Virus genome (UHGV): UHGV-1746214
DNA length: 10,630 nucleotides
DNA from: a virus
Direction: 5' to 3' (one strand)
Every line of letters starts with the position of its first letter. Position 1 is the stretch's first letter. The notes under the pieces were generated by a model. The model ran no database searches. It worked only from the letters and a program-made list of their open reading frames with translations, and was not told where the DNA came from. The translations under genes were made by a program, and so were the position numbers. Shown here piece by piece: positions 16 through 10,630 of this stretch.

Positions 16-51
16 CCCGCCAGCGGCGGGTGGGTAAAATCATTAACGACC

Positions 52-396
52 TCAGGCTATTACCTGAAATTCAAGCGTGGCTCTGCTCAGACGGGAATCA
101 GGATCATAACCCTGAGTTTTAGAAATAACGGAGGGTGCAAGTTGCCTTACCGCATCAAGCGCCTGCTCACGGATATCATCTGCGTCATCAGGTACTGTTG
201 CCCAGACATCGATCTGCACGGTAATTCTGGATTCAGCCTGACCATCAAGCACATCAGACGCAGTGTCAGACACCACAGAAAATACCAGCCATGGCGGAGA
301 TACCGCAGGCTTTCCCTCCGTCAGCGGGACCACATAAGGATAAACCTGTCCTCCGGCCAGTTGAGACAGCAGGGAATACAGTGTGGTCTCTCTCAT
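52..396 (-). CDS. Phage morphogenesis protein, DUF3168-like (tail completion/terminator candidate)
   Basis: 114-aa ORF, last gene of the head-tail joining cluster; start overlaps the upstream gene's stop (ATGA); N-terminal pattern resembles the DUF3168 family from memory. Confidence 0.55.
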   Translation of the reverse strand: MRETTLYSLLSQLAGGQVYPYVVPLTEGKPAVSPPWLVFSVVSDTASDVLDGQAESRITVQIDVWATVPDDADDIREQALDAVRQLAPSVISKTQGYDPDSRLSRATLEFQVIA

Positions 397-839
397 TTAC
401 TTAAGACCTCATCAATAGCCTGATTCATTCGCTGTATGGCAATCTGTGCTGCCAGTTCCTCTGTCGTATCGAAAGCCGGGCGAATGAACGGATGCGCGGG
501 CATGTTTATCGTTCCCAGCTCCACAAAGCGCCAGTAAAACGCATTTCGGGGATCGCTGGCTTTCATGCTGTTATCACTGTTTCCGGTTCGCAGGTTCCGT
601 CCACGAATGTGGACACCCGAGATAATTTCCCCCCGACGCTTTGAACGCTGAGTGAGAACAACCACATTTTTCTTCAGTTTCCCGGTTCGCTCCGGCGCAC
701 GTTCAACAACTGCATCCCGCATAACTTCAGCACCGGCACGGGTGGCATCGCGCAGTACCTTATTGTTTTCTGCCCTGCTGAGCGTCTCCAGATCCCGTGC
801 AATATCCGCCAGACCTGAAAAATCAAGACTGAAATCCAT
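393..839 (-). CDS. HK97 gp10-family head-tail joining protein
   Basis: 148-aa ORF (ATG at 839; the ORF track starts one codon earlier at GTG 842); N-terminus MDFSLDFSGLADIARDLETL is typical of the gp10 family; position downstream of the head-tail adaptor. Confidence 0.6.
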   Translation of the reverse strand: MDFSLDFSGLADIARDLETLSRAENNKVLRDATRAGAEVMRDAVVERAPERTGKLKKNVVVLTQRSKRRGEIISGVHIRGRNLRTGNSDNSMKASDPRNAFYWRFVELGTINMPAHPFIRPAFDTTEELAAQIAIQRMNQAIDEVLSK

Positions 840-1177
840 CACACATTCCCCTTCTGAGAACAGAGTATCTCAAGCCGGGTGGCACGAGCATCCGGTATCG
901 GCGGACCGTCTATACTCAGAATCGCGCCTTTGAATGCACCAGTCAGCACTTTCAGACATGAAGTTGCTGTCACATCTCGCCGGAATCTCATCCAGACCCT
1001 CACTGTAGCCTGAGCAGTTTCTGCGCCTCCGGATATTCTCTCCCTGCCACTGATCCCCTTAACTTCTGCCCATATGGTTGCCCCCTCCGTCATTATTTCC
1101 ACAGGGTGCCCTGACGGAGACCGAACGGTGGTGGCATTCAGAATAACCACGCGATCACGTAATCTTCCTGCCTGCAT
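839..1177 (-). CDS. Head-tail adaptor / head closure protein (Phage_H_T_join-like)
   Basis: 112-aa ORF beginning MQAGRLRDRVVIL, resembling the conserved N-terminus of head-tail joining proteins; synteny after the gp6-like connector. Confidence 0.65.
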   Translation of the reverse strand: MQAGRLRDRVVILNATTVRSPSGHPVEIMTEGATIWAEVKGISGRERISGGAETAQATVRVWMRFRRDVTATSCLKVLTGAFKGAILSIDGPPIPDARATRLEILCSQKGNV

Positions 1178-1186
1178 GAAATCCTC

Positions 1187-1492
1187 CTATGTTCCGGGAT
1201 GAAACCGATACATTCGGAGTCCGGTATAGAAAAAATCAGGCACAGCATCCTGCATTTCCCTGTTCTCGTACCAGTAGCCAACCAGTTGCATAAGACGCAG
1301 CTTTATCAGCGGTGTTATTACAAGCCCGGTCGTATCCTGCTCAGGAACAGTTTCATCGTGAAGTGTCCGGTTTAAAAACTTTTCAGCCTCTTCCCTGGCA
1401 GCAGCCAGATACATCATAAGAAGAGCATTCTCCTGTTCATTGTCATCATCAATCCGGCACTGAACACGAAGCTCTTCCAGAGTGGGCATCAT
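1187..1492 (-). CDS. gp6-like head-tail connector protein
   Basis: 101-aa ORF; size and position two genes after the major capsid gene; start overlaps the upstream stop (ATGA). Confidence 0.6.
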   Translation of the reverse strand: MMPTLEELRVQCRIDDDNEQENALLMMYLAAAREEAEKFLNRTLHDETVPEQDTTGLVITPLIKLRLMQLVGYWYENREMQDAVPDFFYTGLRMYRFHPGT

Positions 1493-1692
1493 TTGGGCAA
1501 CCTCTGTGAATGCTGTTTTTTAGACTTATCAGCCCCCCGCGCAACAGGTGTTCTCTTATCAGAGACAATTCCAGCTGCAGTGGCAATTTCGCGTACCCGT
1601 TCGGGTAATTCTTTATCTTCATACTCACCGGCCCGAATGATCTCAACACGCATACCGTCCGGTGACCATTTCAGATCTTGTTTCAGGATCAT
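1489..1692 (-). CDS. Hypothetical small phage protein (67 aa)
   Basis: ORF with an AGGTGA Shine-Dalgarno about 8 nt upstream of the ATG; sits between the capsid gene hairpin and the connector gene; no recognisable motif. Confidence 0.4.
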   Translation of the reverse strand: MILKQDLKWSPDGMRVEIIRAGEYEDKELPERVREIATAAGIVSDKRTPVARGADKSKKQHSQRLPK

Positions 1693-1714
1693 GATTCTTT
1701 CACCTGTCAGAACA

Positions 1715-1734
1715 GGGGCGCACTTCTGCGCCCC
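1715..1734 (-). terminator. Stem-loop just downstream of the major capsid gene (attenuator/terminator candidate)
   Basis: Perfect 8-bp GC-rich stem (GGGGCGCA / TGCGCCCC) with a 4-nt loop, 8 nt after the capsid stop codon on the minus strand; the downstream U-tract is weak. Confidence 0.35.
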
Positions 1735-1742
1735 CTGAATGA

Positions 1743-2948
1743 TTACGCCGCTGCAATCTTCAGCAGTTTGATGGCCTGCGAATCGACCAGCATGCCGCCA
1801 GTGCGCTTGGTGGTATAAAAACCGACAAACGGTTTATTGGTGTACGGGTCACGCAGAATGCGGGTACCGATACGGTCAACGATGGTGTAACCCCGTTTGA
1901 AGTTACCAAATGCAATGGCTTTCGCATCAGCGGCAATATCCGGCATCTGTTCGTTTTCAGCGATACCGTAACCCGCCAGAGAGGACGGCTGCCCCAGCTC
2001 CAGCCCCGGACGCCACAGATAGTTACCCTCGGTGTCTTTCAGCAGACGAATGGCAAACAGGCTGTTGTTGTTCATCATGAACTTCGCGCCAGTGCGGTGT
2101 GCCTTACGCAGCGTGTAAATCAGTTTGATAATGGCGTCTGCGGTCACCGCAGTCGCTTCGCCGGATACAATATGCTGAAGTTTGCCGAACGCCCGGACCT
2201 TGTCGTTTTCATCAGTGGACTCATACGCCAGGAACCCTTTCGGCTTCTTGGTACCATCGCCGGTGGTAAAGGCAATTTCTTCCTGTTCGGCAAATTCGGT
2301 TGCCAGCTCGCTGTTGATCCAGGCCTCCACGTTGAAAAAGGCATCATCCAGCATTTTCTGGGTGGCCTGCGGGTTACCGTAGATTTCCCCCATGAAAGGT
2401 TCAATCAGCCCCAGTTTTGAGGTGGCAGTCTGGGAGCGCGCGTCAGTCTCGCCAACCCATCCGGAAGCCGTGCCGCCCAGATTCACCAGTTTTTTGTAGT
2501 CGGAACCGCCAACGGTGATCACCGTGGCTTCCTGGCGCATCACCACTTCATCTTTCAGCAGGGTCAGAATGTTGCGATCCAGCGCTTCCGGCACGGCATA
2601 GCCGCCGTCTTCATCGGTGCCCACCTGTAATGCCTTGCGCTCCAGATCGCGCAGCCCATCTTCACGGCCTTTACGCAGGAAGCCCACAAACGCTTCTTTA
2701 TGCTCGGTGGCCAGTTTATTTTGCGTACCACCTGCCGGACGTTTCAGCTCAATCAGCTCTTTTTCAAGGTCGCTTTTGAGATTTTCCAGCTCGCTGAGTT
2801 TTCCGTTCAGGGTTTCCACCTGCCCGGCAAGTTTGCCTTTTTCCTGCTCAATCGCCTCAACGCGCTTGTCGTTCTTTGCTTTGAAGTCGTCAAACTTCTG
2901 CTGCAGCTCCTGCGCGACCTGTTCGACATCTTTAATATCTACCGCCAT
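1743..2948 (-). CDS. Major capsid protein, HK97 family
   Basis: 401-aa ORF directly downstream of the prohead protease; N-terminal roughly 100 aa is a charged coiled-coil like the HK97 delta domain; AGGAG Shine-Dalgarno 7 nt upstream. Confidence 0.9.
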   Translation of the reverse strand: MAVDIKDVEQVAQELQQKFDDFKAKNDKRVEAIEQEKGKLAGQVETLNGKLSELENLKSDLEKELIELKRPAGGTQNKLATEHKEAFVGFLRKGREDGLRDLERKALQVGTDEDGGYAVPEALDRNILTLLKDEVVMRQEATVITVGGSDYKKLVNLGGTASGWVGETDARSQTATSKLGLIEPFMGEIYGNPQATQKMLDDAFFNVEAWINSELATEFAEQEEIAFTTGDGTKKPKGFLAYESTDENDKVRAFGKLQHIVSGEATAVTADAIIKLIYTLRKAHRTGAKFMMNNNSLFAIRLLKDTEGNYLWRPGLELGQPSSLAGYGIAENEQMPDIAADAKAIAFGNFKRGYTIVDRIGTRILRDPYTNKPFVGFYTTKRTGGMLVDSQAIKLLKIAAA

Positions 2949-2962
2949 CGTATTTCTCCTGA

Positions 2963-3613
2963 TTAGAAGTTCAGATTTTTCAGTGCATTCAGTGCAAAGC
3001 CCACATCCTCAGCGTCGCGCAGGGACAGTGCGCCATAGCCCCCGGCCATGAATGCTTTGGCCTGGGTACGGGAGAGTCCGACATCACGCAGGACTCTTTC
3101 GATTTTTTTCTGTTCGGGGATTTCCCCGCGGGCCAGTGCGTTCTTGACGTCGCTGATCCGCGCCTCGTCGTTAGACGGGAATGTCACCAGACTGACTTCC
3201 CAGAGGTCGATTTCTTTCAGCAGAAAGGCTTCTTTCGTCCGGTCGTATTCCCAGTCCTTCAGGACGTACCCAATAGAAAGGCCGGTTAACGAACCGGCCT
3301 TCATGTGTGCATGTGCGCGTTTTGCCAGGGGATCATCATCAATGAGCAACCGCCCCCTGACGTAAAGCCCGACATCGTCTTCCTTCATTTCGGTGTAAAC
3401 ACCGATGGGCTCATCCATGCGGTGCTGCCAGAGCAGCGCAGGTAACGCTTTTCTGTCACTCCACGCCCGCAGGGAAGTGGCAAATGCCCCGGACATCACC
3501 ACATCATCGTGGCTGTCCTTTACACCAAAGACGGAGCCATACCCTTCAAACTCACCGGAGTCACTGACAGATTTCAGACTCAGCGGTACATCAAGACGTT
3601 GTTTCGTCTGCAT
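2963..3613 (-). CDS. Prohead protease, HK97 family
   Basis: ORF between portal and capsid genes; start placed at the internal ATG at 3613 (good AAGGA Shine-Dalgarno) rather than the track's 3649 (no Shine-Dalgarno); overlaps the portal 3' end. Confidence 0.85.
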   Translation of the reverse strand: MQTKQRLDVPLSLKSVSDSGEFEGYGSVFGVKDSHDDVVMSGAFATSLRAWSDRKALPALLWQHRMDEPIGVYTEMKEDDVGLYVRGRLLIDDDPLAKRAHAHMKAGSLTGLSIGYVLKDWEYDRTKEAFLLKEIDLWEVSLVTFPSNDEARISDVKNALARGEIPEQKKIERVLRDVGLSRTQAKAFMAGGYGALSLRDAEDVGFALNALKNLNF

Positions 3614-4832
3614 TGGCGTTATCCTTCTGCTTACCGGCTTTACTGCCATCGGAGGGTTTCGTGGTCATGTTCATCGGTGTGAGATAGACATCACCACCGG
3701 GACGCGGATTCATATCTTCCAGGTCGCGGCAGTCATTGGGAGAGTAAATTCCCCAGTTGATCCCGGTGGCGTAGGCTTCAAAACGGGACTTCATATCCCC
3801 GCGCAGTAACGCCCCGGCGTTAAATTTGGCGTAATAAGCGCCCTGCTTACTTTTTCGTACCAGTCCGGTGTTGATCCGCTGTTCGATGCGGGTCAGATAC
3901 GGCACCAGTGAATAGTTGATAAATCCCAGCCCCAGCTCTTCGATATTGTTGAAGGTGGCGCGATCGGTGTTCTGCACCATGTGCAATGGCACCCGGAACA
4001 GACGACAGATTTCTTCAAGCTGAAACTTGCGGGTTTCCAGGAACTGGCTGTCCTCGGCGTTCAGCGCCATCGACTTCCAGTCCAGCCCCATCTCAAGGAT
4101 CATCGGGCGGTGAGCATTACCAAGCCCGGTATGACGCTCCTCAAAATCTTTCTTCAGACGCTCATAAGCCTGATCCGACAGCGTCTGCTCTGTACGCAAC
4201 ACACCGGACGTCACCGCACCATTGCTGAACAGTCTGGCCCCGTGCTCTTCGGTCGCAGCTGCCAGCGATATTGCCTCGCGGGCATAGGCGACGGGATTCA
4301 GTCCCACCAGACCGTCCAGCGTCAGCGTGCGTACATGCCAGATATCCTCCTGGCTCAGTACATCCGTGGAACCGTCCGGGAATGTGACCTGATAGACCGG
4401 CTCCCAGCTACTGTTAAGCTTCGGTACCACACAGCCGGGATCGACGGGCAGCAGTTCAGCCACTTCGCCAAATGCTTTCACTTTGTAGGCGTAAAAGTTT
4501 CCCCGCAGGCACAGACAGGTGACCACCAGCTCCCAGAACTCCTGCGGCGTCATATAGCCATTGGGATGCGTGGAGATCAGCTTATGCAGACGTTCGCCGG
4601 TGGCTCTCTGTTTCAGGTTGCCGTTCAGGTGATACAGATTGCAGGGCAACATCCCGACCGACTCTGCCAGCACCCTGACGCAGGAAAAAACCGCCGTCAG
4701 TCGCATGGCCCGCTGGCTGCTGATCTGCTTTCCGGTATAGGTGTCATATGACAGCCCGATAGCATCCGCCAGCTCTGCTGGCGTGGTCACCGGCGCGTCA
4801 CTTTTTCGTTGAAATAATCCCGAAAAGAACAC
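3591..4832 (-). CDS. Portal protein, HK97 family
   Basis: 413-aa ORF immediately downstream of the terminase region; GTG start preceded by GGAGGT at 6-nt spacing; size and position match HK97-type portals. Confidence 0.9.
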   Translation of the reverse strand: MFFSGLFQRKSDAPVTTPAELADAIGLSYDTYTGKQISSQRAMRLTAVFSCVRVLAESVGMLPCNLYHLNGNLKQRATGERLHKLISTHPNGYMTPQEFWELVVTCLCLRGNFYAYKVKAFGEVAELLPVDPGCVVPKLNSSWEPVYQVTFPDGSTDVLSQEDIWHVRTLTLDGLVGLNPVAYAREAISLAAATEEHGARLFSNGAVTSGVLRTEQTLSDQAYERLKKDFEERHTGLGNAHRPMILEMGLDWKSMALNAEDSQFLETRKFQLEEICRLFRVPLHMVQNTDRATFNNIEELGLGFINYSLVPYLTRIEQRINTGLVRKSKQGAYYAKFNAGALLRGDMKSRFEAYATGINWGIYSPNDCRDLEDMNPRPGGDVYLTPMNMTTKPSDGSKAGKQKDNANADETTS

Positions 4833-5014
4833 TATTTACCTCCGCCGACAGACGGCTGTGTACGGTCGAGATATCGCGCCACCAGCCACGACCAGAACAG
4901 GCACAGCACCCCGGCAACAACAAAACCCGCCGGGGGATAAATCAGCCAGACACCATACGCCAGCAAAAACGCCCCCAGCACGCCCACCAGTGGCGCGAGA
5001 ATTATCAGAAACAT
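4832..5014 (-). CDS. Small membrane protein (60 aa, two predicted transmembrane helices)
   Basis: ORF with a GAGGT Shine-Dalgarno, wedged between the terminase large subunit stop and the portal start (its TAG overlaps the portal GTG); two strongly hydrophobic segments. Confidence 0.5.
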
Positions 5015-5025
5015 AATGACCTCGG

Positions 5026-6561
5026 TTAAAGCGAGCGGATGCCCACGCTGACCAGACGTTCAGACAGATCCGGCTCCGGTTCACCACCATTGACCAGCAT
5101 CCGGCTCATTGCTGTAAACATCGCAACAGGGCCGTCGATTTTGGCTTCCAGCGTGGATTTATTCGGGAAGATATTGTCGTTTTTGTCCGGTTTTACCGTA
5201 ACGTTAGACATCATCCAGTTCATGACCGGATGATTGCTGTGATGGAAACGCCCGGCATAGACCAGTGATTCCGTTTCCTTCATGGCCTCTGACAGATTAC
5301 GAACCGTCTGCGGAACCTCCACCAGCGGTATCCCTTCTTCGGCCAGTGCCAGGCTGAACTGCATCGCGCTCCACGGGTCAAATCCCAGTTCCCTGAGGTT
5401 TTCACCACCAATCCATTCCAGTAAGTCACTTTTTATCTGAGCATGATCGATAACATCACCATCCGTCAGAATCAGCTTCTCCATTTCTGCCCACTTCCGG
5501 TAAAGTTCTGCCTGCTGCCGCGAGCATCGTTCCAGCCGTCCTTCCGGAAGCCAGAATTTAAAATCGGCATGAACATGCCCGTTATCCGTTCGCCAGAGTT
5601 TTGCCGCCGCACAGATATCAATCTTATGAGCAAGGTCGACGCCGACCCACATGGGGTACGTTTTCAGCTCATGTCGTGGGGCAATGTATTCGCACTTCTC
5701 CCACTTAATCATGTCCATCCAGGCAGACTCTGCTGTTACCCACACATTCATGTGTTTCGTGAAAAAATTCACCCGCGCAGAGACCTGCTCCTTCGCTTTT
5801 TTCGCCAGGCGACGCAGATCATCCCAGCGTTTACAGATGCCCAGGCCAGGATTCGCTTTCTGCCAGACCGTTTCATCAAACGGATCATCTCCCTCATCGA
5901 GCGTGTAAATGATCGCAAAGTAGGAGTCGTCTTTTACCGCGCCCTCCACGTCGCTGTTATAGCCACGCAATACCTTGATGGCGTAATCACGCTGCTCGTA
6001 ACAAATCCCTTCCTTGTTAAACCCTGCCGTGGTGATACCAAATAAAAGGGACTGCAGACGGGCACCGGTCGCCGTTTCCAGAACGTCCCACACATCACGG
6101 GTTTTATGTGCATGCAGCTCATCAATAATGGCGCAGTGGATGTTCAGACCATCCAGGTTGTTTGCATCCGAGGAAAGCGGTTCAAATTTTGATGCGCTCT
6201 GCTCCTGGTAAATCGCCAGCTTGTTGAAATCAAACAATCTCCCGAGTGTCGACCGGGCTTTTCTGACCATATTTTTAGCGTCTTCAAACACGATTCTGGC
6301 CTGGTCACGCGTGGTTGCGGCTGAATACACCTCAGCCCCGCCTTCACCATCTGCCCCCGTCATATACAGACCGATACCCGATGACAGGGTTGATTTTGCG
6401 TTTTTACGGGCAACTTCGTTGTAGGCCGTCCGGAACCGGCGCACCATCACCGGGCGTCCGCTGCCATCGCTGCGCATGACAACTTCCCCGGTCTCTTCAT
6501 TGACCAGCGGAATGACAAAACCAAAAATATTAATGAGGATAAATACATGCCAGTCCATCAA
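5026..6561 (-). CDS. Terminase large subunit (Terminase_1-like), main 511-codon portion downstream of an in-frame amber codon
   Basis: Contains a P-loop-like VARKNAKST segment and a Walker-B-like [11 protein letters not shown]; located between the small terminase subunit and portal; the same frame continues upstream through a TAG at 6571-6573 into the 70-codon N-terminal piece. Confidence 0.9.
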
Positions 6562-6570
6562 CTCAATAGG

Positions 6571-6783
6571 CTAGCCTGCCAGCGCCCCTTTTACATGAGG
6601 CACAAATTTGTAGAAATTCAGGATGTGCTGCGCACGGGGTTCACTGAAATAAATCCCCCGCTTCTCGCCGTACTTCAGATCATCAAGAAAACGCTGGCAG
6701 GCCAGACGGACAAATTCGCCAGCAACAATTTCTCCTGCAACAACACGTTCGGCGTAGCGGATCCCGTCAGCCACTTTTGCCAT
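6571..6783 (-). CDS. Terminase large subunit N-terminal fragment (70 codons ending at in-frame TAG)
   Basis: ATG overlaps the small-subunit stop (ATGA); the LACQRFLDDL and PHVKGALAG segments resemble N-termini of large terminase subunits from memory; in frame with 5026..6561. Confidence 0.7.
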   Translation of the reverse strand: MAKVADGIRYAERVVAGEIVAGEFVRLACQRFLDDLKYGEKRGIYFSEPRAQHILNFYKFVPHVKGALAG

Positions 6784-7265
6784 CAGTCTCTCGCTTTTAA
6801 AAGCTCCGCCAGCGGATCGACATCATCCGGTCCGGCGATATTTACTTTAGCCCGGCTTGCCGGTGACATGCCAAACTCTGCAAGCATTGCCCGGATCCGC
6901 TTCCAGGCATCCGCTTTCATTGCCGCCGCGGGGTGCGCCTTAATCAGCACATCACCGTTCTGTGTTTTCGTGCGGTAGGTATACCCCTCAACATCGAGTG
7001 TTTCGCAGTGATGCCGGTATTCGGTGTAGGCTTCCACCAGTAACTCGAGTGCACGCGCATCAAGCTGAGAAATGATCCCTTCCGCATTCAGCTCTTCCGC
7101 CATTCGCCTGAACCAGTACTTCCCCTGCGCCCCTAAATGTTGCGGAATTTTAGGGAGACCTTTTTCATCCTTTTTGGCGGTTTTTTTGGGGGCTTTAACT
7201 GGGCGCTTTGAGGGGTTACCTCGTATCAAATGCAGGCGTGGCGGGGTTTTCGGAGGTCCTGACAT
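6783..7265 (-). CDS. Terminase small subunit (P27 family-like)
   Basis: 160-aa ORF with a Lys/Pro-rich N-terminus and a C-terminal EFGMSPASRAK motif typical of P27-family small terminases; immediately upstream of and overlapping the large subunit. Confidence 0.85.
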   Translation of the reverse strand: MSGPPKTPPRLHLIRGNPSKRPVKAPKKTAKKDEKGLPKIPQHLGAQGKYWFRRMAEELNAEGIISQLDARALELLVEAYTEYRHHCETLDVEGYTYRTKTQNGDVLIKAHPAAAMKADAWKRIRAMLAEFGMSPASRAKVNIAGPDDVDPLAELLKARD

Positions 7266-7329
7266 AATCGGTTTTACCTATCAATAGTTTGTTAACATTC
7301 CCAAAAAAAGTTTTCGAACCTGCGGCGAT

Positions 7330-7405
7330 GTGAGGAAGGGTCAGGCGGCGGTCCTGAAGCGCGAAAGGGGTCAGGGATTTGATCCCCCCTCCCCCCTGAA
7401 GATGG
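7330..7405. other. Candidate cos / packaging-site region (GC-rich motif cluster)
   Basis: Intergenic region upstream of the small terminase gene; GGCGGCGGTCCT at 7344-7355 resembles the lambda cosN core as I recall it; CCTGAAG is repeated at 7353-7359 and 7395-7401, flanking an imperfect G-run/C-run palindrome. Confidence 0.25.
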
Positions 7406-7505
7406 CAGCAAGAAACCACGCAAAAAGAAGATACTGGTCATCCATCAGGATGCTCAGCATGATGTCTTCAGTTAATCTCAATAAATAAACGATGGAGTCT
7501 AATAA

Positions 7506-8021
7506 ATGGATAAAACCAGAAAATATGACAGAGCCTTACAACTTGAAATCCTCAACGCCCTTATAGATTGTGCTCCTAACTCTTTAAACAAGGCACAGGA
7601 ACAAGACCTCATTGAGAAGTTTGACAGCTATGATCACTTTGTGGCGTGCATGTTATACCTTGAAATGCATGGTCTCGTTTCTACACCCTTCGTACGCAGC
7701 GATACCATGGATGGCGTTGATTTTATCTTCAATGCCCCGTACTGCAACATTACAGAGAAAGGAATTGATTTTCTTCTTGATGATGGCGGCTTAAGTGCGA
7801 TCCTTAAAGTTCAAACCGTTCGGTTACACAGTGACACGATTGTTGCCCTTGAGGATATAATCCGTGTCGCAAATATACCTGAAGATCAGAAGAAGGGATT
7901 GATTTCAAAACTCCGAGAGCTTCCGGGAGACGCCATAAAACATTTGACCCTACAGTTACTGACTCAGGGGGTTCTGAATCTACCGAACGCACTTCGACTA
8001 ATTCAAACAACCCTCCAGTAG
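7506..8021 (+). CDS. Hypothetical protein (171 aa), moron-like accessory gene on the opposite strand
   Basis: Only convincing plus-strand ORF; GGAG Shine-Dalgarno 8 nt upstream of the ATG; visibly AT-rich compared with flanking phage genes (about 38% GC counted over its first 61 nt); followed by a hairpin; no recognised motif. Confidence 0.7.
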   Translation: MDKTRKYDRALQLEILNALIDCAPNSLNKAQEQDLIEKFDSYDHFVACMLYLEMHGLVSTPFVRSDTMDGVDFIFNAPYCNITEKGIDFLLDDGGLSAILKVQTVRLHSDTIVALEDIIRVANIPEDQKKGLISKLRELPGDAIKHLTLQLLTQGVLNLPNALRLIQTTLQ

Positions 8022-8037
8022 GGCTAAACTCATCTGA

Positions 8038-8063
8038 GGGGCGAATTAACTCAAATTTGCCCC
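8038..8063 (+). terminator. Hairpin downstream of the plus-strand ORF (possible intrinsic terminator)
   Basis: GGGGCGAA / TTTGCCCC stem (8 bp including one G-U pair) with a 10-nt loop, 17 nt after the TAG stop; a TTTTT run follows about 9 nt downstream. Confidence 0.4.
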
Positions 8064-8156
8064 ATCCCAGCTTTTTACTTAAAACAACCCAAAATTCCTT
8101 CCGGGTATCTGCATGAATGTAGAAACTATTTTTATGCATTACAGCAGTGAATATTA

Positions 8157-8507
8157 TCATCGAATACGTTCTCTTGCTGTCTTCGCTCTGTGGCATTCCC
8201 AGCATAACGACTCAAGATTGGAATCATCATCAGTACCACCATGAGCTTTTGGGATAATGTGGTCTACAGTCCTGGCCTCAACAGCCCGCCCATTGCGCAG
8301 GCAGTTCTGACACAGATGATTATCACGCTTCAATACGCGCGCACGTATGGTATCCCATTTCGAACCATAGCCACGCTGGTGGCGGCTCAGTCCGCGTTGA
8401 TGCTTTACCCATCCTTCGCCACGATGTTTATCACAGTAACCAGAACTGTCTGTGGTTGTACCTGCACATCCACGCTTACGGCAGGCGCGTGGGGTTTGTG
8501 ATGGCAT
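8157..8507 (-). CDS. HNH endonuclease (terminase-associated type)
   Basis: 116-aa ORF with Cys-rich N-terminus and the HNH core HIIPKAHGGTDDDSNLESLCWECHRAKT; located upstream of the terminase genes as in HK97-like phages. Confidence 0.9.
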   Translation of the reverse strand: MPSQTPRACRKRGCAGTTTDSSGYCDKHRGEGWVKHQRGLSRHQRGYGSKWDTIRARVLKRDNHLCQNCLRNGRAVEARTVDHIIPKAHGGTDDDSNLESLCWECHRAKTARERIR

Positions 8508-8527
8508 GGAATTTCGTTCTCCTGCTA

Positions 8528-8824
8528 TTAAAACGCTTCTCCCTCGGGGCGGATACAGATCGCACCCAGCCCCGCTGCCACGGCGTACTGATTATGTTCA
8601 TCGACAAGCTTTATTGTGCTATCAAGTAACTCACGACAGCGATTTACATTCGTTTCAATGCTCAACACCAGTGAATAAGCACCATTCAACTCCTCACCTG
8701 ATAAAAACGGAGAATCAGCAGAAACAATTTCCGATTTTATTTTTCGCAGAGCGCAAAGATTTTCTTCAATGCGTTTTCTCAGGATCACACAACGCCCAAT
8801 CGCTTCATAGTTTCGCTCAGACAT
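8528..8824 (-). CDS. Hypothetical protein (98 aa from ATG at 8824)
   Basis: ORF between Rz and HNH; AGGTAGGTG Shine-Dalgarno upstream of the ATG at 8824 (the ORF track extends to a TTG at 8842); lower GC than flanks; no recognisable motif. Confidence 0.55.
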   Translation of the reverse strand: MSERNYEAIGRCVILRKRIEENLCALRKIKSEIVSADSPFLSGEELNGAYSLVLSIETNVNRCRELLDSTIKLVDEHNQYAVAAGLGAICIRPEGEAF

Positions 8825-8849
8825 TTCACCTACCTGTTTCAAAAGTACT

Positions 8850-9314
8850 CTACTTAATGCACTGATCGCGGATATATTCCTGCAATCCCCTGATCATTTT
8901 TTCGCTGGTTGCGATTCGCTCCCTGAGGACGAAATAATCCCGCTGAGCGGCGTCAGTAAGTCCGGGGCTGGCTGCATCATCCACGCCGGAGGAGGTGGAG
9001 GCTTCACGCACGGATGGACAGACGGCTCTGATGCGCAACCGACGACGACCAGCGGCAATATCATTACGCAGAGCATCATTTTCAGCTTTTGCATCAGCTA
9101 ATTCCTTCGAGTATTTTTCATCGAGTGCAGCAACATCACGATGGCGCTGCTGCAGGTCAGTAATAGTGGCGTTCGCCTGGCTGAGTTTTGTCTTCACATC
9201 ATCTCGCTGCTCTTTGTAGGTAATGGCGTTACTACGGTAATAGCTGGTGGACTGCCACAACGCACCGCAGGCCACCAGCAGCGCAATGATCGCGCCATGA
9301 AGAACATGATTCAT
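8850..9314 (-). CDS. Rz: i-spanin (Rz-like)
   Basis: 154-aa ORF with an N-terminal transmembrane segment and a charged coiled-coil region; contains an embedded lipoprotein ORF in another frame; downstream of the endolysin. Confidence 0.85.
   Translation of the reverse strand: MNHVLHGAIIALLVACGALWQSTSYYRSNAITYKEQRDDVKTKLSQANATITDLQQRHRDVAALDEKYSKELADAKAENDALRNDIAAGRRRLRIRAVCPSVREASTSSGVDDAASPGLTDAAQRDYFVLRERIATSEKMIRGLQEYIRDQCIK
8894..9094 (-). CDS. Rz1: o-spanin lipoprotein (Rz1-like), embedded within Rz
   Basis: 66-aa ORF wholly inside Rz in a different frame; signal peptide with lipobox VVGC and a proline-rich mature region (PPPPP). Confidence 0.8.
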   Translation of the reverse strand: MQKLKMMLCVMILPLVVVGCASEPSVHPCVKPPPPPAWMMQPAPDLLTPLSGIISSSGSESQPAKK

Positions 9315-9315
9315 A

Positions 9316-9429
9316 TCACCACCAGCGGATTACCCAGATCAGAACAGCAATGGACACAATACGAATAGCAAAGGTCGCTGCTCTTGTTAAATCCAGGCTG
9401 GCTGGCGTTTCCACTTCAATGCCTTTCAT
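9316..9429 (-). CDS. Small hydrophobic peptide ORF (37 aa), not in the supplied ORF track
   Basis: ATG at 9429-9427 with GAGG about 11 nt upstream; encodes MKGIEVETPASLDLTRAATFAIRIVSIAVLIWVIRWW; its TGA stop lies 1 nt before the Rz ATG. Confidence 0.3.
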   Translation of the reverse strand: MKGIEVETPASLDLTRAATFAIRIVSIAVLIWVIRWW

Positions 9430-9525
9430 AATGGACAACCTCAGAAAGAATTTTTTATACTTCCTCACAGGTAAAGCACCTCCCTACCCATAATTTCTCC
9501 CTTGCCTTACTCAAGGTCAGAAACA

Positions 9526-9559
9526 CAAAGCCCCGATTGCTCCAACAACCGGGGCTTTG
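9526..9559 (-). terminator. Strong hairpin immediately downstream of the endolysin gene
   Basis: Perfect 10-bp stem (CAAAGCCCCG / CGGGGCTTTG) with a 14-nt loop, 6 nt after the endolysin stop; T-rich sequence on both sides. Confidence 0.4.
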
Positions 9560-9565
9560 CTTTAC

Positions 9566-9949
9566 TTATCGTTTCAACTGGAAGTGAGGCCCGTCTTTCA
9601 GGCTGGCCCAGTCCCCGCCCCATTCGATGGCGATCCCCAGTTCTGCGGCAGCCTGCTTAAATGCCTGTGCGATTTTCTCGTACAGAAACCAATCCCATGA
9701 CACCTGACTGCCAACGTAAGCCACAACATCAACCGCATCACCTGTCAGGTGACGGCTGTTCATGGTCTGGCTTTTTCCTTCAGCAACCAGCTGTTTCTGG
9801 CGATACTTGCTGCGCAGGCCTTCCGTAATACCGAAATCAACCTCCGTCAGCTCCAGAGCACGGCGAACTACAGCAACCAGCTGTGGTTTGACACCCTCCA
9901 GATTTTTCTCGCTCCGACGACTGAATCTGAATTTACCCGGCATACTCAC
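9566..9949 (-). CDS. Endolysin, peptidase M15 (VanY-like) family
   Basis: 127-aa ORF with the metallopeptidase motif SRHLTGDAVD (SxHxxGxAxD) and the distal WGGDW...DGPHFQL His region; sits within the lysis cassette. Confidence 0.85.
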   Translation of the reverse strand: MSMPGKFRFSRRSEKNLEGVKPQLVAVVRRALELTEVDFGITEGLRSKYRQKQLVAEGKSQTMNSRHLTGDAVDVVAYVGSQVSWDWFLYEKIAQAFKQAAAELGIAIEWGGDWASLKDGPHFQLKR

Positions 9950-10221
9950 CCCCGTAATGAAAGGATTTTTGTAACGTTCCCACGTGCACGTATCACTAGC
10001 ACACAGACCAGCAGGTTAAAAAACACCATCAGCCAGTTACCCGGCGGGAAGTGTCCGCACAGATAGCTGAGCGGAGCAAAGGCATAAAGCAGCATCAGCA
10101 GCCAGGCCAGCCATGACATCAGCGGTTTATGTCTGGAATCACGACGACGATAAAAAAAAAGCGTCAGCACGATAACCGTGCATAACGCCACATTCAGCAA
10201 TCCGGGAAAGTTATTTAACAT
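9946..10221 (-). CDS. Holin/antiholin-like membrane protein (91 aa from ATG at 10221)
   Basis: Three hydrophobic segments; ATG at 10221 preceded by GGAGGAGG (the ORF track extends to a GTG at 10236); overlaps the upstream holin's 3' end, and its stop overlaps the endolysin ATG. Confidence 0.6.
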   Translation of the reverse strand: MLNNFPGLLNVALCTVIVLTLFFYRRRDSRHKPLMSWLAWLLMLLYAFAPLSYLCGHFPPGNWLMVFFNLLVCVLVIRARGNVTKILSLRG

Positions 10222-10603
10222 TGCCGCCTCCTCCACCCCGCAGGCGTGAGAACAGACCGGATACCAGCGATGCGATATCCTGCTGGTGGATAAACGACAG
10301 AATTTTTACCGACACCACCGATACCAGCACCGCACACAGTGCATCTGCCGATGTGCCGTCATAACCGGTTTTTGATGCAATCCAGACTGACAGCACATGC
10401 GCACCCAGTACACCAACGATAAACGACACAAGAAAATGCGCAGCCACACGCCAGGCGGATAGTGTCTGCGGCATTGTGGCCACAAACAGCGCCCCGGCAA
10501 ATGCACCAAACACAATCCCGAAATCCGTTCCGGTAAACAGCCCGAACACCGTCGCCCCACCGAGCGCCGTAGCCGTGCCGGAACCGGATAAGGGTTCAGA
10601 CAT
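10211..10603 (-). CDS. Putative holin (130 aa, 3-4 transmembrane segments)
   Basis: First gene of the lysis cassette; Gly/Ala-rich hydrophobic helices; AGGAG Shine-Dalgarno upstream of the ATG; C-terminal charged/Gly tail. Confidence 0.65.
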   Translation of the reverse strand: MSEPLSGSGTATALGGATVFGLFTGTDFGIVFGAFAGALFVATMPQTLSAWRVAAHFLVSFIVGVLGAHVLSVWIASKTGYDGTSADALCAVLVSVVSVKILSFIHQQDIASLVSGLFSRLRGGGGGNVK

Positions 10604-10619
10604 ACTTTTTTCTCCTGTA

Positions 10620-10630
10620 AGATCGGAAGA
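10620..10630. other. Illumina adapter remnant (AGATCGGAAGA)
   Basis: Matches the start of the standard adapter read-through sequence AGATCGGAAGAGC as I recall it; reverse complement of the window's first 15 nt. Confidence 0.8.

Follow-up and report, generated by a model that had tools for sequence, protein, structure and literature searches.

A single amber codon interrupts the terminase large subunit gene of an HK97-like Escherichia coli prophage

Introduction

The large terminase of phage HK97, gp2 (504 aa, PDB 6Z6D), has been described by Fung et al. 2022 (PMC9410871). Large terminases of the HK97 type are recognised by an ATPase domain with a Walker A motif, a C-terminal nuclease domain, an operon slot between the small terminase (TerS) and portal genes, and a single uninterrupted full-length frame. 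In the classical amber mutants of phage packaging genes, a CAG-to-TAG change stands in an essential late gene, and supE, which inserts Gln, restores the wild type. A further point of reference is provided by phages that read TAG as glutamine (genetic code 15), in which in-frame TAG codons are found where relatives have Gln.

The DNA analysed here is a stretch of 10,630 nucleotides, virus genome UHGV-1746214, referred to in its whole length as the window. The terminase large subunit gene (terL) in it has the Walker A ATPase domain, the C-terminal nuclease domain and the slot between TerS and portal that are typical of the HK97 type, but the frame is not uninterrupted, as a TAG stands at codon 71. 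Judged by its sequence, this copy of terL is a pseudogene or a conditional allele. An initial annotation of the window had offered four causes for the stop: a very recent inactivating lesion, a base-call error, an engineered amber allele, or a phage that needs amber suppression.

Prophage context

Window positions 16-10620 are colinear with a prophage of E. coli C012 (NZ_CP119577.1), from which they differ by four transitions and no gaps. Read in the direction of transcription, which is right to left in the window, the C012 order is two holins, M15 peptidase, lysis protein, HNH endonuclease, a hypothetical protein on the opposite strand, P27-family TerS and a 585-aa TerL, followed by a 60-aa protein, portal, HK97-family prohead protease, major capsid, head-tail connector, head closure, gp10-like and tail-completion proteins. 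The tail genes of C012 lie beyond the window. The HNH endonuclease gene (8157-8507, minus strand), part of a cos packaging module of the HK97 type, the P27-family terS gene (6783-7265, minus strand; PF05119, Terminase_4; annotated in C012) and the portal gene downstream of terL (3591-4832, minus strand) are all intact, and the stop codon of terS overlaps the start of terL (ATGA). The 18 other window genes with a counterpart among the annotated CDSs of the closest complete genome all lack internal stops, in agreement with the initial annotation, which had described the other head genes as intact. The same terL is also found at 96-98% identity in the sequenced phages vB_EcoM-606R7, phi467 and Evi.

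The three other differences from C012 are all missense: portal H233R at window position 4135, HNH I5T at 8494 and lysis protein A40V at 9196. At 4135 it is C012 that has the derived base, since the window agrees there with the five other relatives. Those five side with C012 at 8494, where only the closest isolates have the base of the window. The closest isolates have the window base at 9196 too, a site that none of the more distant relatives covers.

The lysis-protein gene (8850-9314, minus strand; 154 aa, PF03245) embeds an out-of-frame ORF of 66 aa (8894-9094, minus strand), which is called Rz1 (PF06085) by gene callers in identical isolate contigs, giving an Rz/Rz1-type nested spanin pair. 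An ORF of 171 aa on the opposite strand (7506-8021, plus strand), lying between the genes for HNH and TerS, has no Pfam match and is hypothetical in C012. It is missing from several related prophages (L014-L016) and looks like a moron-type insertion.

Positions 1-15 of the window (ACGCTCTTCCGATCT...) and 10621-10630 (...AGATCGGAAGA) are Illumina adapter and not phage DNA. The adapter at both ends marks the window as the whole contig of an untrimmed short-read assembly; the sister contigs L005-L008, L010 and L013 likewise end in adapter. The real window sequence stops at A-rich runs beside a GC-rich hairpin.

The split terL frame

On the minus strand, terL (5026-6783) runs from the ATG at 6783 to the TAA at 5028-5026, and translation shows 586 codons with a sole internal stop, the TAG at 6573-6571, which is codon 71. 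The frame and the junction are thus as the initial annotation had given them. Its read-through length of roughly 586 aa is right as a codon count that includes the TAA (585 codons plus stop), whereas the product would be 585 aa, a form that is indeed the norm among homologues, as had been claimed. In the full frame, Pfam matches are found to TerL_ATPase (PF03354, residues 112-268, E=2e-27) and TerL_nuclease (PF20441, residues 283-563, E=3e-52), and the Walker A motif is ARKNAKST at residues 125-132.

The break leaves two pieces. The 5' ORF (6571-6783, minus strand; 70 codons plus TAG) covers the conserved N-terminal helices of TerL and by itself has zero Pfam matches. The 3' ORF from Met76 (5026-6558, minus strand; 510 codons plus TAA) holds the entire ATPase and nuclease domains and is a possible re-initiation product. 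The program-made ORF list gives the same 70-aa piece at 6571-6783 together with a downstream piece of 511 aa that begins at a TTG (5026-6561), while in public assemblies the gene callers put its start at Met76 (ATG 6558-6556, 510 aa), and did so in each of the ten that were read.

Most of the 120 best homologues listed are single proteins of 575-585 aa, the rest being fusions or partial fragments, and they range over Escherichia, Salmonella, Serratia, Yersinia, Proteus, Xenorhabdus, Hamiltonella and others. Alignments of 20 and of 30 such homologues (73-89% identity), all of them 575-585 aa long, show many invariant positions within residues 1-70 and an almost invariant junction, G70-x-P72-I73-x-L75-M76-x-W78. 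The sequence is conserved across the junction, and in the place of the stop 20 of the 30 aligned homologues have K and 10 have Q, so that a sense codon stands here in all of them. The annotated terL CDSs of related complete genomes are 1758 bases long. On these alignments, the 70-aa ORF is the N-terminus of TerL and not a gene of its own. It could be argued that the 70-codon ORF is independent and that the terminase normally begins at the ATG at 6558-6556, since gene callers annotate two genes in the amber-carrying contigs and the 70-aa piece has no Pfam domain. However, the single-protein length of most homologues, the sense codon and conserved sequence across the junction in 30 of 30 aligned homologues, and the 1758-base CDSs of the complete genomes leave this reading a vanishingly small probability. 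With neither an independent 70-codon gene nor a family start at 6556 seen among the homologues, the split-gene reading first proposed stands.

In a profile alignment with HK97 gp2, YKFVPHVKGALAGQPIEL (residues 58-75) lies opposite FCIVP--EGKLIGQPMRL (14-29), and Q71 is opposite HK97 Q25 in a shared GQP motif. The stop falls inside a conserved G-(Q/K)-P-x-x-L motif ahead of the ATPase core. AlphaFold places helices at residues 2-15, 23-42 and 48-60. The block means of pLDDT are 75-87 for residues 1-50 and 60 for residues 51-60, and a low-confidence stretch at 60-71 ends at the stop. The full-length model, made from a shallow alignment of 30 sequences, has a mean pLDDT of 59 and falls below 50 in the ATPase core, and was used for the N-terminal helices alone.

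Origin of the amber codon

Compared with terL of E. coli C012, the window copy has one difference in 1758 bases (99.9% identity), a C to T change at position 211 that converts CAG to TAG. The changed base in the amber codon (6571-6573, minus strand), which stands in place of the Gln71 codon, is window position 6573, A on the plus strand and T on the coding strand. Codon 71 is CAG in all ten close-relative loci read (C012, five further relatives and four nearer copies), which confirms the earlier proposal that the TAG was made by a C-to-T change in a Gln codon. The stop is kept in none of the relatives, the ten close ones having CAG and the distant ones Q or K.

The closest intact copies of the prophage were located with the window HNH protein as a probe. 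An isolate assembly (GCA_045139255.1, L018) differs from the window by a single mismatch in 6464 aligned bases, the copy from run SRR6112420 (L023) by a single mismatch in 6033 and a third copy (L019) by a single mismatch in 4866, and in each case the mismatch is at 6573. In a fourth (L021), about 6200 bases show the mismatch at 6573 together with two single-base gaps. The TerL encoded by L018, L021 and L023 is in each case 585 aa long. By comparison with these copies, the TAG at codon 71 is a derived point mutation, and as it is the sole difference from intact copies over more than 6 kb, the mutation is very recent. Of the four causes first offered, the recent inactivating lesion is therefore the one favoured. 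A stop would result from about 3.8% of the single-base changes possible in terL and from 2.6% of the transitions, which makes such an event unremarkable. A Dcm hotspot (deamination of 5-methylcytosine) was considered as the cause and rejected, there being no CCWGG at the site.

The initial annotation had also pointed to the position of the TAG within an 8-bp palindrome containing an NheI site. Both are present, as the TAG sits in GGCTAGCC (6569-6576), which holds the only GCTAGC site of the window. However, neither is meaningful, since the wild-type GGCCAGCC at the same place is not a palindrome and 25 perfect 8-bp palindromes exist in the window, against about 41 expected by chance. The palindrome and NheI site were thus rejected as a signal and are regarded as a chance by-product of the base change. 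The tetranucleotide CTAG occurs only twice in the 10.6 kb, against about 41 copies expected from base composition, reflecting its usual avoidance in E. coli; one of the two copies (6570-6573) was newly made by the amber mutation.

Recurrence of the allele

The exact 70-aa ORF is found on at least 24 metagenome contigs and is indexed in 28 collection blocks. Ten contigs from ten separate assemblies or runs were read, and the TAG is present in each of them; their identity to the window is 99.95-100%, the few mismatches falling near contig ends. They comprise ERZ28647244 (TAFT14-1_SAMN01112480 scaffold_910, essentially the window itself), seven ERZ78xxxx SPAdes assemblies with coverage of about 7x, and Logan assemblies of SRR1159162 and SRR1161020. 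When the amber pieces were looked up as proteins, the 70-aa piece was counted on 15 contigs and the 510-aa piece on 8, and all of these contigs belong to Logan or ENA assemblies. The intact, otherwise identical protein is on 175 contigs, NCBI isolates included. The 70-aa product is absent from NCBI sources, despite the many Illumina-sequenced isolates with the same local sequence. Among 5426 complete E. coli genomes, 493 carry the 71-base stretch and none of these 493 has the TAG allele, all showing at least one mismatch. No exact match to a 36-base pattern across the TAG was found in the viral, species-representative genome and JGI metagenome collections.

A sequencing or assembly artefact, with CAG as the true sequence, would be in keeping with the untrimmed state of the window, which has Illumina adapter at both ends, and with the low contig coverage of about 7x. 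The changed base is moreover preceded by GGC, a context reported to provoke Illumina errors. However, T is found at 6573 in 10 of the 10 contigs read, which come from ten assemblies or runs and from different assemblers, whereas isolate assemblies with the same local sequence never gave the 70-aa product and the intact form is on 175 contigs. The recurrence of the same base across assemblies, and never in isolates, argues against a random or context-driven error. The base-call error that had been listed among the possible causes is accordingly very unlikely.

The amber-carrying assemblies probably come from one study batch and one cohort. Judged by the label 'TAFT14-1', this may be the preterm-infant gut cohort of Taft, Ward and Morrow (BioProject 63661, PMC4819403). 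The amber contigs may all stem from a single bacterial clone carried by one host or a few, and the independent confirmation that they give is limited to that extent.

Recoding and suppression

It was also considered whether the TAG is meant to be read, be it through use as a sense codon, through an amber suppressor that the phage carries or needs, or in a laboratory amber mutant. As the initial annotation noted, a Gln-inserting suppressor would restore the likely wild-type residue, and the ancestral codon is indeed CAG; the base change also makes an NheI site. However, TAG is the normal terminator of 4 of the 19 window genes (those of the lysis protein, the opposite-strand ORF, the 60-aa protein and the head-tail connector), a single internal in-frame TAG is found in the whole window, all relatives have CAG, and the sources are metagenome assemblies. 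No tRNA genes, and so no suppressor tRNA, were found in the 10.6-kb window, and the tRNA genes of the C012 copy of the prophage, which lie upstream of the lysis genes, are tRNA-Thr(TGT) and tRNA-Gly(TCC) and no others. A TAG that is meant to be read is, on this evidence, hardly credible.

Reassignment of TAG and a phage-encoded suppressor were both rejected on the grounds of the TAG terminators, the lack of a suppressor tRNA in the window and the unconserved stop. Likewise, the suggestion of a phage needing amber suppression finds no support, given four other genes that terminate in TAG, a sense codon in the relatives and no suppressor tRNA in the window. An engineered amber allele is implausible for metagenome assemblies, the NheI site being a by-product.

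Probable consequences for packaging

The reading that is likely to be correct is a fresh one-base loss-of-function lesion (CAG to TAG at terL codon 71) in an HK97-like temperate E. coli phage or prophage, which would block packaging. In this lineage, a spontaneous C-to-T transition turned the Gln codon into TAG, and translation would stop after 70 residues, inside the G-(Q/K)-P-x-x-L motif. Full-length terminase would then be lost or brought down to trace amounts. An induced prophage could still lyse the cell and build proheads, yet it would not cut or package DNA, and the newly defective prophage would be passively carried by its host clone. As the ATPase and nuclease domains lie 3' of the stop, they would be made only by read-through or by re-initiation at Met76.

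Either of these routes might make the allele leaky. The base immediately 3' of the TAG is C, and in E. coli a UAG with C after it terminates comparatively weakly. Gln is the residue put in at UAG by near-cognate read-through in suppressor-free E. coli, so that wild-type TerL could be remade at a low level, and terminase is needed in catalytic amounts only. For re-initiation, the Met76 ATG lies 12 bases past the TAG, and both catalytic domains are downstream of the stop. A leaky allele would thus depend on Gln insertion at UAG-C, or on a 510-aa TerL re-initiated at Met76 (or at the Leu75 TTG), perhaps with the free 70-aa peptide, and would give a viable phage with a reduced burst. The presence of the allele on many contigs of the cohort would fit this, although passive carriage in one bacterial clone explains that recurrence equally well. 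Against a leaky allele, the first 70 residues are strongly conserved across genera, and the Met76 restart product would lack both the conserved N-terminal helices and the G-(Q/K)-P-x-x-L motif common to HK97 TerL. In addition, the Shine-Dalgarno pairing of the Met76 ATG (-2.5 kcal/mol) is the weakest of 19 start sites scored, 17 annotated starts having values of -3.7 to -12.1. A leaky allele is therefore unlikely. Somewhat less likely again is its stronger form, in which terminase activity persists, through Gln read-through at UAG-C or the 510-aa TerL with or without the 70-aa peptide, in a naturally attenuated, still transmissible prophage that is kept in a gut E. coli clone.

With the loss-of-function lesion as the preferred reading, the proper label for terL is a pseudogene (Gln71 amber) instead of two genes, and in these samples the prophage should be counted neither as intact nor as inducible. 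The event is an ordinary recent nonsense mutation in a prophage gene, of a known kind and with no new feature type. It illustrates cleanly how prophage decay begins, a single base away from copies that are fully intact, and the allele would be of more interest only if it were leaky and maintained.

Other lesions in the prophage family

Another example of decay in this prophage family is seen in E. coli ETEC1749, where the portal gene (L015, 3575-4817) is annotated as a frameshifted pseudogene. In other genomes, terL of the family is split near codon 343 (about window position 5755) by an inserted element, as seen in L019 (6753-8351), L020 (6752-8351) and L028 (E. coli 042, 15226-32228). At this one spot in terL the integrases of L019 (445 aa) and L020 (402 aa) differ, and the L019-type junction is found in 36 of 5426 complete genomes. 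The insert of E. coli 042, about 15 kb, encodes an integrase, AlpA-like regulators, a DUF927 primase-like protein and SSB, and has its own capsid, protease, portal, connector, HNH, TerS and TerL genes and no tail genes. In its gene layout it resembles a capsid-forming PICI satellite.

Comparison with known systems

The closest counterparts of the window gene are the intact terL copies of the same prophage in E. coli C012 (NZ_CP119577.1, protein WP_112039718.1), GCA_045139255.1 and SRR6112420, which have the same neighbourhood and are identical in DNA within terL bar one base. In them codon 71 is CAG (Gln) and a single protein of 585 aa is encoded, whereas the window copy is interrupted. With the classical amber mutants, and with nonsense decay of prophages, the window allele shares a single CAG-to-TAG transition in an essential late gene. 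It differs from the classical mutants in that it arose naturally in a lineage sampled by metagenomics, with no suppressor or conditional phenotype in evidence. Phages of genetic code 15 are alike in having in-frame TAG where relatives have Gln; in contrast to these, the window has one such TAG, four TAG-terminated genes and no suppressor tRNA.

Compared with HK97 gp2, the window TerL is extended at its N-terminus by about 44 residues, which in the AlphaFold model form the first helices of a segment with three helices, and about 24 residues are inserted ahead of Walker A. Its partner is a P27-family TerS, and its frame is interrupted by a stop. The two proteins nevertheless have the same ATPase and nuclease architecture, with about 29-30% identity over about 455-475 residues. 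They share a Walker A motif of the form A-R-K-N-x-K-[ST], in which ARKNAKST of the window aligns with ARKNGKTG of HK97 (lysines K57 and K60). The GQP motif precedes the ATPase core in both, and in both phages terL adjoins the genes for TerS, the HNH endonuclease and the portal.
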